A stretch of 64,000 bases of DNA from a phage. The notes under the pieces are model-generated. The model saw nothing but the letters and a program-made list of their open reading frames with translations, was not told the origin of the DNA and made no database searches. The translations under genes and the position numbers were made by a program. This document shows positions 15,868 to 18,916 of the stretch, one piece after another. The DNA is taken from sequence record PX441839.1; one strand, written 5' to 3'. Numbering within the stretch: position 1 is the stretch's first letter; each line of letters opens with the position of its first letter.

Positions 15868-16158
15868 ATGAATATTCAAGAACAGGTTAAAATAACTTTC
15901 GAAGACCTTGTGGAACTACATAAGAAACGAAAATATCAAAAGGGCCGAGAAAAGAAGGCAATGGAGGATGTGGTATTCTTTTCTAAAGATGGTCATGGAC
16001 TTTCCAAGAAAGAGGCAAACAGGAAGGTTGATGCAGCGTGGGCTACACAACGGGACGCTGTGAACATTGTGTCAGGTATTGATAAGCAGATTGAATATGA
16101 ACTGAATGCCATAGGGCAGATTATCAACTTTGTTGCGGAAAAGGAGAGTGATAAATGA
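15868..16158 (+). CDS. hypothetical protein
   Basis: ORF track 15799..16158; ATG (MNIQEQ) after GAGAGGAGAG. Confidence 0.4.
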   Translation: MNIQEQVKITFEDLVELHKKRKYQKGREKKAMEDVVFFSKDGHGLSKKEANRKVDAAWATQRDAVNIVSGIDKQIEYELNAIGQIINFVAEKESDK

Positions 16159-17069
16159 TTTCTTTACATCTCGATAACTTTAAAAGGGTTAAGCTTGAGT
16201 TTATGACGTTCAGCGGTGGAGAGCGTAACGTCCGTATAGGTGGACTGGATGTCGAAAAAGATGGTGTTCTTGAGTTTGCTGGATATGGGGAGGTTGACCA
16301 TCTCTCTCAACGTAAGTGGGAAAATTATCGTGTAACAGCACATATTCAAAGCTCAGATGATATCATGGATCTGTTACTTCTAAAGGATGCCATTGATCGT
16401 GTGGGCAATGGATGTTTGCGACGTGTATACTCAATCCTGCATCTTCCGTATCTCCCATATGCTCGACAAGACCGTGCAATGGTAAACGGGGAGGCGATCT
16501 CTGTTGTCGTTATGGCAAACCTGATTAACTCTCTTGAGTTTGATGCCGTGTGGATTGATGACCCGCATTCTGATGTTGGTCCGTCGCATATAAAAAACGC
16601 CGTAATTACCCCTCAGCATGAGCTTTTGCTGGACATGTGTAACAAAGATGATGTTCTTTCCGATGGAACAATCATTGTTGCACCTGATGCAGGTGCCATG
16701 AAAAAGGCAAGCAAGTTGGCTGAACTCGCTGATTTACCTCTCGGGACTGGTGGTAAACACAGGGATGTCAAGACAGGTAAGATTACAGGAACAACTTACA
16801 CAGGGCCAGATGTAAACGGTAAACGATGCCTGTTGGTAGACGATATTGCGGATGGCGCTGCCACATTTGTGTGTCTTGCAGAGAAACTAAAATCCCTGGG
16901 TGCAAAACAGGTTGATCTGTATGTAACGCACGGCATTTTCTCAAAAGGGATTGATGACCTTGAGCATATCGATAAGATTTATTCGGCATACCCCTGGAGA
17001 AAGAACGTTAAGTGGAAAAATGGAAAAGGTAAGCTAAATACGGTTGACATCGTAAGCTGGTTCGAGTAA
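16155..17069 (+). CDS. ribose-phosphate pyrophosphokinase (PRPP synthetase)-like enzyme
   Basis: YARQDR and LLVDDIADGAAT match Prs catalytic and PRPP-binding motifs; 304 aa; ATGA overlap with upstream gene. Confidence 0.65.
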   Translation: MISLHLDNFKRVKLEFMTFSGGERNVRIGGLDVEKDGVLEFAGYGEVDHLSQRKWENYRVTAHIQSSDDIMDLLLLKDAIDRVGNGCLRRVYSILHLPYLPYARQDRAMVNGEAISVVVMANLINSLEFDAVWIDDPHSDVGPSHIKNAVITPQHELLLDMCNKDDVLSDGTIIVAPDAGAMKKASKLAELADLPLGTGGKHRDVKTGKITGTTYTGPDVNGKRCLLVDDIADGAATFVCLAEKLKSLGAKQVDLYVTHGIFSKGIDDLEHIDKIYSAYPWRKNVKWKNGKGKLNTVDIVSWFE

Positions 17070-17125
17070 AGTACATTTTATCGGGAGGCGTGTTGCCTCC
17101 CACATACAACGAAGGAGAGTTACAT

Positions 17126-18916
17126 ATGCTGAGTCAAAATAGCCCTATTCTTTTTGCTGATTGGTACAAGCCATCCCACATCTCCATGTATCATGGTAAA
17201 TCAGAGATCGTCCAAGATAACATGACACCACGTAATCACAAACATTACACTCACTTTTCTGACAATGATAAGCGTGTAATGATGGCTGGCCTTCAAGGAT
17301 TCATCAAATGGTTCCTTATCGAAAAGTTCAACAAGGATTTCTTCTCCCTGTCCAAAGAGGAGGCTCTGGCAGAGTTTAAAGAGATCTGTGACTTATCTAT
17401 TGGACCTGGTAAAGTTGAAACATGGGGATTCGAAAAGCTTCACGACCTTGGCTACCTGCCAATTGAAATTCGTGCTTTACCAGAAGGTACTTTGTGCCCG
17501 GTACAGGTTCCACTGTTCACTATTCAGAACACGCACCCTGACTTCTACTGGTTGCCTAACTATTTGGAATCTGTGGTATCTTCTGAAACATGGAAGACTA
17601 TCACCACGGCAACTACGTTCTGGCAGTATCGTAAACTGTCCGAGAAGTTCGCTGCACTGACCTGTGACGACAACAGTCACGTACCGTTCCAAAACCACTG
17701 CTTCGCCTATCGCGGACAGGCTGGTACGCACGATGCAGCGCAATCTGAGTTTGGTCAACTGATCAACTCTATGGGTACAGACACCATTCCGGCAATCCTG
17801 TATGCAAATAATTATTACTGGATGAAGGGTAAGTTTGTTGCAGGGTCAATTCCAGCATCTGAACATTCTGTTGCCACCACCAACATTGGGTTCATCGTTG
17901 GTCGTTTACGCTCAGAAAATCCAGAAATGTCTCTGGACGATCTCCGTTTCCATGCAGAGGTTGAGTTCCTTAAGCGTTACATTACGGAAATTTTCCCAAC
18001 TGGGCTTGTTTCTTATGTTGGTGACAGCTACGATTGGTATCGTCTAATTCGACATGGGGCCGAGGCTCTGAAAGAGGAAATCTTAGCTCGTGATGGAAAA
18101 CTTGTTTGGCGACCTGACTCTGGTGTTCCAGAGGACATTATTTGTGGGACTGTTGACTGGAGCAAGATTCAGGATTTAACTGATGCAGGTTCCCTTGAAT
18201 ATGCGGGTGAGTGGGCACTAGAAACTGCTGTTGAATCCGTTCAAGAAGATACACCTCACGGTGAGCAGGGTGACTGGGACGTATCGAGCCTGTTCTTGTA
18301 CGAAGGTGCTCTGTACCGTATGCGTGGAGAAATTGAATGGAATCGTTATGACAAGCAGTATTACTATGTCGATGGTTCACGAGTAATCTCTGTGGAGCCA
18401 GTGGAACTGGATGATGTGCAGAAAGGTGCCATTGAAGTGCAATGGGAAATTTTCGGTGGAACTGTGAACAGTAAAGGGTACAAGGTTCTTGACCCACACG
18501 TAGGTCTGATTTACGGTGACTCAATTTCTGTTGAACGTGCTAACACTATCTACAAGCGACTTGAGGCCAAAGGATTTGCATCAAGTAACATTGTTCTCGG
18601 TGTTGGTTCCTACACTGCACAGTTCGTTACACGAGACAGTCTCGGAATGGCAGTCAAGGCAACTGGAGCAATTATTGATGGTGAGCAGATCATGGTTGTT
18701 AAGGAGCCAAAGACAGATATTGGTAAGAAGTCAGCCAAAGGGTTCCTGAAAGTTGTTCGTAATAGTGAAGGTGAGTTAGAGCTTGTCGATAACCTTCAAC
18801 TTGACCAGGTGGATGATGCAGACAATGAATTACGAACTGTATTCAAGGATGGTGTCTTGGTTGTTGACGAGACTCTTGAAGAAATTCGTAACCGCGCCGC
18901 TTCAAACCTTAAGTAA
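17126..18916 (+). CDS. nicotinamide phosphoribosyltransferase (NAMPT/NadV)-like enzyme
   Basis: about 600 aa type II phosphoribosyltransferase-like; N-terminal ILFADWYK; ATG after AAGGAGAG; ORF track start 17090 is a TTG. Confidence 0.6.
   Translation: MLSQNSPILFADWYKPSHISMYHGKSEIVQDNMTPRNHKHYTHFSDNDKRVMMAGLQGFIKWFLIEKFNKDFFSLSKEEALAEFKEICDLSIGPGKVETWGFEKLHDLGYLPIEIRALPEGTLCPVQVPLFTIQNTHPDFYWLPNYLESVVSSETWKTITTATTFWQYRKLSEKFAALTCDDNSHVPFQNHCFAYRGQAGTHDAAQSEFGQLINSMGTDTIPAILYANNYYWMKGKFVAGSIPASEHSVATTNIGFIVGRLRSENPEMSLDDLRFHAEVEFLKRYITEIFPTGLVSYVGDSYDWYRLIRHGAEALKEEILARDGKLVWRPDSGVPEDIICGTVDWSKIQDLTDAGSLEYAGEWALETAVESVQEDTPHGEQGDWDVSSLFLYEGALYRMRGEIEWNRYDKQYYYVDGSRVISVEPVELDDVQKGAIEVQWEIFGGTVNSKGYKVLDPHVGLIYGDSISVERANTIYKRLEAKGFASSNIVLGVGSYTAQFVTRDSLGMAVKATGAIIDGEQIMVVKEPKTDIGKKSAKGFLKVVRNSEGELELVDNLQLDQVDDADNELRTVFKDGVLVVDETLEEIRNRAASNLK

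Follow-up and report, generated by a model that had tools for sequence, protein, structure and literature searches.

The 64,000-nucleotide stretch of phage DNA analysed here (record PX441839.1, hereafter the window) carries two adjacent + strand genes, adps and namat, that very probably (at roughly 90%) constitute a two-gene operon of NARP1, a published pathway by which phages rebuild nicotinamide adenine dinucleotide (NAD+), in a phage of the Vequintavirinae resembling SSBI34. The first gene, adps (16155-17069), encodes a 304-residue protein of the Prs fold, predicted to be an ADP-ribose (ADPR)-pyrophosphate synthetase from its open reading frame (ORF), ribosome-binding site (RBS), family matches and position in the Adps clade. 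The second, namat (17126-18916), encodes a 596-residue protein of the Nampt fold, predicted to be a nicotinamide ADPR-transferase from its ORF, RBS, selectivity clamp and clade. The genes lie head to tail with a spacer of 56 nt. The original prediction, which was made from the nucleotide letters, had described a Prs-like gene next to a NAMPT-like gene of about 600 codons; the two ORFs and their strong family matches bear this out, and the motifs it quoted from the first protein are present, YARQDR at residue 102 and VDDIADGAAT at residue 228. Its proposal, in which a Prs homologue pyrophosphorylates ADPR and a NAMPT homologue then joins the resulting compound to nicotinamide so as to counter TIR, SIR2 or SEFIR immunity, corresponds to NARP1, and the clade, the residues and the published tables of homologues all agree with that assignment.

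The window shares approximately 97% identity with SSBI34, a Salmonella phage of the Vequintavirinae (MZ520832). Over the adps-namat pair the DNA identity to SSBI34 is 97.1%, every other phage record reaching 80% or less, and both the gene order and the flanks of the pair are identical in that phage. Genes 79 and 80 of SSBI34, named in GenBank as ribose-phosphate diphosphokinase and nicotinate phosphoribosyltransferase, share 97.7% and 98.5% protein identity with the window Adps and Namat respectively. The differences comprise 7 substitutions and 32 synonymous codon changes in adps and 9 substitutions and 28 synonymous codon changes in namat, and leave the key residues untouched. In the work of Osterman et al., MZ520832_00079 is listed among Prs/Adps homologues with the entry 'Namat within 10 genes: Yes' (Supplementary Table 1) and MZ520832_00080 among Namat homologues as 'Adps-associated' (Supplementary Table 2); the sequences printed there are those of the window proteins save for a few substitutions. 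Given that both SSBI34 genes stand in these tables, near-identical orthologues of the pair have already been counted as NARP1: the system is already published and the lineage already catalogued.

NARP1 was described by Osterman et al. 2024 (10.1101/2024.02.11.579819) as a route in which Adps and Namat together rebuild NAD+, the Prs-like Adps converting ADPR to ADPR pyrophosphate (ADPR-PP) by pyrophosphorylation and the Nampt-like Namat combining ADPR-PP with nicotinamide to form NAD+. The archetype is genes 79-80 of phage Bas63, the loss of which sensitises Bas63 to SIR2-HerA. The chemistry was shown in vitro with the SpβL1 enzymes, which are inactivated by K162A in Adps and R306G in Namat, and the in vivo effect was shown for Bas63 and FADO. 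SpβL1 Adps gives no product from ribose-5-phosphate, and SpβL1 Namat supplied with phosphoribosyl pyrophosphate (PRPP) and ADPR-PP together makes NAD+ only. NARP1 defeats type I Thoeris, DSR1, DSR2, SIR2-HerA and SEFIR and fails against type II Thoeris, and the Bas63 counter-defence persists in a host deleted for pncC and nadR. The genes for Adps make up a phage-specific clade, 97% of them with an adjacent Namat, an arrangement almost never seen for cellular prs, and NARP1 is carried by 859 phage genomes, or 4.3% (10.1101/2024.02.11.579819).

By homology to these enzymes, the window pair would act in two chemical steps with an anti-defence outcome. A host effector of the SIR2, TIR or SEFIR type would cut NAD+ to ADP-ribose and nicotinamide; Adps (16155-17069) would then transfer pyrophosphate from ATP to the free ribose C1'' of ADPR, yielding ADPR-PP, and Namat (17126-18916) would let nicotinamide displace the pyrophosphate of ADPR-PP to give NAD+ directly. 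The net reaction would be ADPR + nicotinamide + ATP -> NAD+ + AMP + PPi, and NAD+ would stay available for phage replication. The pair is predicted to offer no rescue from defences that leave NAD+ undepleted.

The window Adps matches Pfam PF13793, PF14572 and PF00156, TIGR01251 (E=1.8e-37) and phrog_619 (E=1.2e-83), the last of which is also matched by E. coli Prs (193 bits). Generic libraries of hidden Markov models (HMMs; Pfam, NCBIfam and PHROGs) were rejected as a means of telling Adps from Prs or Namat from Nampt, since the validated Bas63 proteins score like those of the window: for TIGR01251, with a cut-off of 113, the window Adps scores 128.9 and the Bas63 Adps 138.5. Among the Prs profiles, the broad TIGR01251 alone was passed, and the window Adps fell below every Prs equivalog or subfamily cut-off, with 104.2 for NF002320 (cut-off 297; Bas63 Adps 100.8) and 94 for NF002095 (cut-off 296), while in the pocket itself a Thr is replaced by Gly234. 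In direct comparison the window and Bas63 Adps share 36% identity (E=3e-43), and the 120 best homologues among 5.8 billion proteins, a set that held no Prs outgroup, are all phage-type.

A neighbour-joining tree was built from approximately 196 aligned core positions with 500 bootstraps, and comprised 13 Namat-linked phage proteins (from the window, SSBI34, Bas63, SpβL1, FADO, a phi92-like phage, phiTE, BIS47, ICP1, PAK_P2, Stab22, Thibault and P46FS4) and seven Prs. The latter were of class I (E. coli, Legionella, Burkholderia and B. subtilis) and class III (Sulfolobus, Methanocaldococcus and Thermoplasma) and were drawn, as were the Nampt comparison sequences, from PDB alignments; four of the seven (S. 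solfataricus, M. jannaschii, T. volcanium and B. subtilis) were represented by core fragments only. The split between Prs and Adps was recovered in 99.8% of the bootstraps with the window protein on the Adps side, where it groups with SSBI34 (100%) and phiTE (95%). Five alignment columns separate Prs from Adps fully and the window protein is in the Adps state at all five: P101 (G/A in Prs), N125 (S/A/E), G234 (T), F238 (L/I/M) and L255 (A/V). One of the five is column 234, equivalent to E. coli Thr225, which is Thr in 7/7 Prs and G, Y or F in 13/13 Adps-like proteins. In E. coli Prs, the Thr225 side chain and the backbone amides of residues 224-226 (Asp224, Thr225 and Gly226) are within hydrogen-bonding range of a phosphate at the site of the 5-phosphate of ribose-5-phosphate (PMC6332680). 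The change from Thr to Gly234 would thus fit a pocket that accepts a 5''-phosphate continuing into ADP. The ribose-5-phosphate loop itself reads DGAAT in the window Adps as opposed to DT[GA]GT in Prs. K201 aligns with SpβL1 K162; since Prs enzymes retain this Lys as well, it shows that the active site is intact and is not a marker of specificity.

For Namat, a structural signature is available in the literature. Crystal structures of the SpβL1 enzyme with nicotinamide and with NAD+ (9W5W/9W5X) led Lan et al. 2026 (PMC12774641) to a two-element 'selectivity clamp' composed of a variable β1-β2 loop, longer than that of Nampt and with Arg, Lys or Tyr as its third residue and a stacking residue at this position or the one after, and a clamp helix. 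Double mutants of the clamp lose NAD+ synthesis and keep the synthesis of nicotinamide mononucleotide (NMN) from PRPP, an activity of which Namat enzymes are still capable in vitro (PMC12774641). In the window Namat the clamp loop, PRNHKHYTHFSDNDKR, is 7-8 residues longer than the loops of Nampt; its third residue is Lys39, as in the published pattern, with His40 and Tyr41 next to it, and the adenine would probably be stacked by a residue of this segment. The clamp helix runs from G494 to D504 as GSYTAQFVTRD, in which positions 3 and 7 are Tyr and Phe, and Thr, Gln and Val stand as Φ1, Φ2 and Φ3. The corresponding segments are GSFTYQYNTRD and GSYTYQYMTRD in the validated Namats of SpβL1 and Bas63, as against GGALLQKVDRD in Xanthomonas Nampt, GGGLLQKLTRD in human Nampt and GGQLLQAPMRD in the NMNAT-linked NadV of phiN3; true Nampt/NadV enzymes thus have helices of the type GG[GAQ]LLQ, together with short loops. 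H. ducreyi NadV, the nearest true Nampt, reads GAQTYQRNTRD in the helix and SNEQ in the loop, and there is no clamp signature there either. This enzyme (PDB 9ke8/9keo; E=1e-102 to the window Namat) is much nearer in sequence to phage Namats than to the Xanthomonas and human Nampts, yet is without the clamp aromatics, and it may be an evolutionary bridge between Nampt and Namat.

At the level of families, the window Namat matches PF04095, NF006629 (E=2.8e-139) and phrog_448 (E=7e-190), its NF006629 score of 464.8 (cut-off 405) being similar to the 468.2 of Bas63 Namat, with which it shares 40% identity over the full length (E=2e-132). Comparison with proteins of solved structure ranked SpβL1 Namat (E=3e-115) above Xanthomonas Nampt (1e-58) and human Nampt (1e-49). 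In an alignment of 17 sequences the conserved nicotinamide, NMN and catalytic residues are D12, Y14, F193, R196, D219, A244, H247, R329, D331, G464, D465, T502, R503 and D504, and in the resulting tree the split between Namat and Nampt/NadV was found in 100% of 300 bootstraps, with the window protein among the Adps-linked Namats. An AlphaFold2 model of the window Namat has a mean predicted local distance difference test (pLDDT) of 81.6, exceeding 90 in the core. Among solved structures the model is matched best by that of SpβL1 Namat, 9w5x (target-normalised template modelling score 0.94, 36-37% identity), followed by H. ducreyi NadV and then human NAMPT (24% identity). Relative to SpβL1 Namat there are two insertions, as in Bas63 and other Gram-negative phage Namats. 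Insertion 1, at approximately residues 254-280 (approximately 17885-17965), falls inside a helical hairpin of approximately residues 247-289 that was modelled with confidence. Insertion 2, at residues 345-426 (18158-18403), has 82 residues and is the longest among the compared sequences, those of Bas63, the phi92-like phage, BIS47, P46FS4 and PAK_P2 being shorter. The insertions are absent from the discussion of Lan et al. (PMC12774641).

It is possible to conceive of the pair as ordinary salvage, the conservative alternative of the original prediction, in which a true PRPP synthetase and a true Nampt (NadV) make NMN, from which NAD+ is then formed by host enzymes of the NadR or PncC type. The generic names would suggest this, with cut-offs exceeded for TIGR01251 (128.9 > 113) and NF006629 (464.8 > 405), as would the Prs-like YARQDR, the catalytic Lys and the formation of NMN from PRPP by Namat enzymes in vitro. 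However, this is highly improbable: the Bas63 Adps and Namat give like generic scores (138.5 and 468.2), so the names are uninformative, and the Prs equivalog cut-offs are all missed (e.g. 104 vs 297). Furthermore, the Thr that contacts the phosphate of ribose-5-phosphate is lost, the protein is placed in the Adps clade, and the adenine clamp is present in the window Namat and in no true Nampt; in the published systems SpβL1 Adps is inert on ribose-5-phosphate and the Bas63 effect survives ΔpncC ΔnadR. The original prediction had held that sequence alone could not separate NAD+ reconstitution from salvage, yet the clamp signature of Lan et al. 2026 and the clade structure do separate them, and the salvage alternative runs counter to the results for clade and residues as well as to the biochemistry already published. 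Given that Namat can use PRPP, salvage would remain as a minor side activity only. A related scenario, that NARP1 chemistry is combined with an Adps that also takes ribose-5-phosphate so that the pair supplies both NAD+ and NMN, is very unlikely. It would account for the retention of YARQDR, for a core identity to E. coli Prs of 31.6% compared with 23-27% for validated Adps, and for the activity of Namat on PRPP in vitro, but YARQDR lies on the ATP side and not in the ribose-5-phosphate loop (by our own reading of Prs structures), the Thr of the phosphate site is lost as in all Adps, and SpβL1 Namat faced with PRPP and ADPR-PP yields NAD+ alone. A pathway of the NARP2 type, in which Nampt and a bifunctional NMNAT make NAD+ from PRPP and nicotinamide, is barely credible. 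In its favour are the presence of a Nampt-fold enzyme, the occurrence of NARP2 in other large phages and the example of phiN3, where a cytidyltransferase/NMNAT gene adjoins NadV. Against it, the SSBI34 annotation includes no NMNAT or Nudix gene over the region that spans most of the window, the SSBI34 Namat is labelled 'Adps-associated' and not 'Nmnat-associated', and the window protein has the Namat clamp and is split from the NMNAT-linked NadVs in 100% of the bootstraps.

Several observations nevertheless weigh against assigning the pair to NARP1. The group of window, SSBI34, phiTE and BIS47 proteins stands opposite all three validated Adps across a weak internal branch (41%), the five diagnostic columns were derived here from 20 sequences and are not a published criterion, and the YARQDR motif is Prs-like where validated Adps have NARYDR or YSRMDR. 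In Namat, position 5 of the clamp helix is Ala where the usual residue is aromatic, the residue that follows the clamp-loop Lys is His where Trp, Tyr or Phe is found elsewhere, and insertion 2 was not resolved by AlphaFold2 (pLDDT approximately 30) and is unalignable between lineages. The nearest experimentally tested enzymes, those of Bas63, are 36-41% identical, and the in vitro conversion of PRPP to NMN by Namats would leave room for a contribution from ordinary salvage. Given the retained YARQDR, the His at the stacking position, the Ala at clamp position 5 and the 82-residue insertion, this raises the possibility that the SSBI34/phiTE/BIS47 sub-lineage has a broadened or shifted substrate range, towards ribose-5-phosphate/PRPP or another ADPR derivative, or that the insertion is a regulatory or protein-binding module. 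This scenario is unlikely, and a NARP1 operon of the plain type is the reading preferred here.

Among known systems, the pair can be compared with the archetypal NARP1 of Bas63 (JohannRWettstein), of which the window is no close relative but with which it shares the order adps then namat, a long-form Namat (593 aa in Bas63, 596 aa in the window), both Namat insertions, the type of clamp helix and Lys as the third residue of the clamp loop. The two differ in that Bas63 is a Felixounavirus and the window belongs to the Vequintavirinae, in the Adps motif (NARYDR in Bas63, YARQDR in the window) and in the residue after the loop Lys (Trp in Bas63, His in the window); moreover, the second insertion is longer in the window and unalignable, and the in vivo data belong to Bas63. 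With the SpβL1 system, the window shares approximately 34% identity over the Adps core and approximately 45% for Namat, and the same chemistry would be expected: Adps K162 corresponds to K201 of the window and Namat F189, R192, D215, H245, R306, D308 and R399 correspond to F193, R196, D219, H247, R329, D331 and R503. SpβL1 Namat is, however, a protein of 491 aa without either insertion and has a short clamp loop with a stacking Arg40, whereas the window loop is long and carries Lys39-His40-Tyr41. Cellular enzymes (Prs, as in E. coli, and Nampt/NadV, as in human, Xanthomonas and H. ducreyi) and NARP2 have like folds and catalytic cores and match the generic HMMs too; from these the window Namat differs in reading GSYTAQF where Nampt has GG[GA]LLQK and H. 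ducreyi GAQTYQR.

Two relatives carry unusual versions of the pair. In Pectobacterium phage phiTE (locus L009, by whose coordinates the insertions are given), an HNH homing endonuclease lies between adps and namat (3875-4432) and a second HNH endonuclease (5258-5842) splits namat into ORFs of 279 and 332 aa; namat halves of the phiTE type fall into separate PHROGs families, phrog_16547 and phrog_15800. In Vibrio phage ICP1 isolate 2017_Dha_AC, the Namat (locus L011, 3389-4708) reads YVTCD where all others have TRD, a Cys thereby replacing the Arg (SpβL1 R399) that forms a salt bridge to the NMN phosphate, and the annotated ORF is without approximately 80 N-terminal residues that include the clamp loop. 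Judged from these features, this may be an inactivated or mis-annotated copy.

Some NARP1 loci carry additional genes. Approximately 15% of NARP1 operons have a Macro-domain phosphatase, Adpp, which converts ADPR-1''-phosphate, the product of aRES, to ADPR, and aRES is not overcome by plain NARP1 (Osterman et al. 2026 preprint). Such Adps-Adpp-Namat operons (NARP1-AP, e.g. Vibrio phage Gary; Osterman et al. 2026 preprint) share the Adps and Namat core with the window and differ in having the phosphatase, none being found within two genes of the window pair. Some phages couple NARP1 with a RyR-domain glycosidase (RyDEP) that linearises cyclic ADPR signals, and no linkage of aRad1 to NARP1 is reported in the literature. 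Searches of ten flanking ORFs against Pfam and eight against PHROGs gave no match to a Macro domain (PF14519/PF01661/PF20016) or a RyR domain, although a very divergent Macro domain could escape such scans, the authors of Adpp having used the more sensitive HHpred. Since neither a Macro-domain phosphatase nor a RyR-domain partner was found in the flanks, the locus is taken as plain two-gene NARP1, and it is therefore predicted to be unable to rescue the phage from aRES.

The namat frame is open from GTG 17090 to 18916, which would give 608 aa, yet ATG 17126, giving 596 aa, is most likely the start: a Shine-Dalgarno sequence, AAGGAG, precedes it by 7 nt, whereas GTG 17090 is buried in a hairpin with no usable spacing. 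The annotation of namat in SSBI34 makes the same choice. The hairpin in question, at 17083-17101 (+) in the spacer between the genes, was found by folding and is GC-rich with 7 bp (GGGAGGC-GUGUU-GCCUCCC) and no U-tract; it has a fold of -15.3 kcal/mol (z = -2.5, with 2/200 shuffles as stable), and it is possibly an element of RNA stability or processing, a modulator of translation or a means of tuning the expression of adps relative to namat. Beyond the pair, folding identified a terminator-like hairpin at 18925-18942 (+), ACCGCCC-UUUU-GGGCGGU followed by UUUU, 9 nt past the namat stop. With 7 bp, a GC-rich stem and a local fold of -17.4 kcal/mol (z = -3.8, 0/200 shuffles as stable), it is a real hairpin, as the original prediction had claimed in closing the pair with a strong terminator. 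That description overstates it, as the hairpin lies just outside the interval 16155-18916 and its U-tract has only 4-5 U, on account of which a consensus terminator scan made no + strand call at this site. An intrinsic terminator, not an outstanding one, is plausible here, and it could act in both directions.

Upstream of adps is a charged ORF of 96 aa with a good RBS (15868-16158, +), the stop codon of which overlaps the adps start codon in ATGA (16155-16158); adps also has its own AAGGAG site. The adps-namat pair is thus embedded in a longer rightward transcription unit, and the 96-aa ORF is translationally coupled to adps. It is described as context and membership of NARP1 is not claimed for it: it has no Pfam or PHROG family match and no similarity to the gene at the equivalent position in phage BIS47, and among the genomes compared it was met only in the window and in SSBI34, where it is hypothetical.

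The pair lies close to a switch in coding strand, near which the GC skew changes sign (14-16 kb of the window). The leftward side includes genes for thymidylate synthase, exonucleases and DNA ligase, and the rightward order is an ORF resembling a winged helix-turn-helix (wHTH) protein, the 96-aa ORF, adps and namat, after which come several small ORFs, a set of ten tRNA genes and finally the genes for terminase and structural proteins. The switch itself is a 310-bp AT-rich divergent intergenic region (15071-15380) with direct repeats at a spacing of approximately 40 nt, TTATGAGYGnARCGAAT in three copies and TTATKGTTTTTATAATT in two, and with TATAAGATC/GATCTTAT motifs that also recur; the arrangement resembles a series of promoters or of binding sites for a regulator. 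The first gene of the rightward unit (15381-15809, +) belongs to phrog_8453, a family of unassigned function, and bears a weak resemblance to the winged helix of replication-initiator/Cdc6_C domains. Weak similarity also links its HTH segment to the gene upstream of adps in BIS47, and its product may be a DNA-binding regulator.

Approximately 1.3 kb downstream of namat are the ten tRNA genes (20173-22361; Thr, Met, Tyr, Ser, Asn, Asp, Ile, Pro, Gln and Gly), a cluster broken by an HNH endonuclease gene (20451-20966) and an ORF of 132 aa; in the phi92-like phage a tRNA cluster likewise lies downstream of NARP1. On the leftward side are two adjoining ORFs, at 1781-2428 (-) and 1183-1791 (-), the former a homologue of an SSBI34 gene annotated as an epimerase and the latter an NT5C-type 5'-deoxynucleotidase (E=5e-8). 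The SSBI34 annotation, 'ribulose-phosphate 3-epimerase', was considered as a hint of pentose or PRPP metabolism and rejected, as the window homologue (1781-2428) has no Pfam match at E<=0.001 and the annotation looks wrong.

In summary, there is no new biology in this locus beyond another member of a catalogued lineage. NARP1 is nevertheless an important recently described counter-defence against many NAD+-depleting systems, present in approximately 4% of sequenced phages, and the published residue signatures now permit it to be called from sequence alone. The value of the assignment lies in the annotation, in which the public names 'ribose-phosphate diphosphokinase' and 'nicotinate phosphoribosyltransferase' would give way to adps and namat. 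On this basis, the phage is predicted to be resistant to NAD+ depletion that produces ADPR, and not to aRES.

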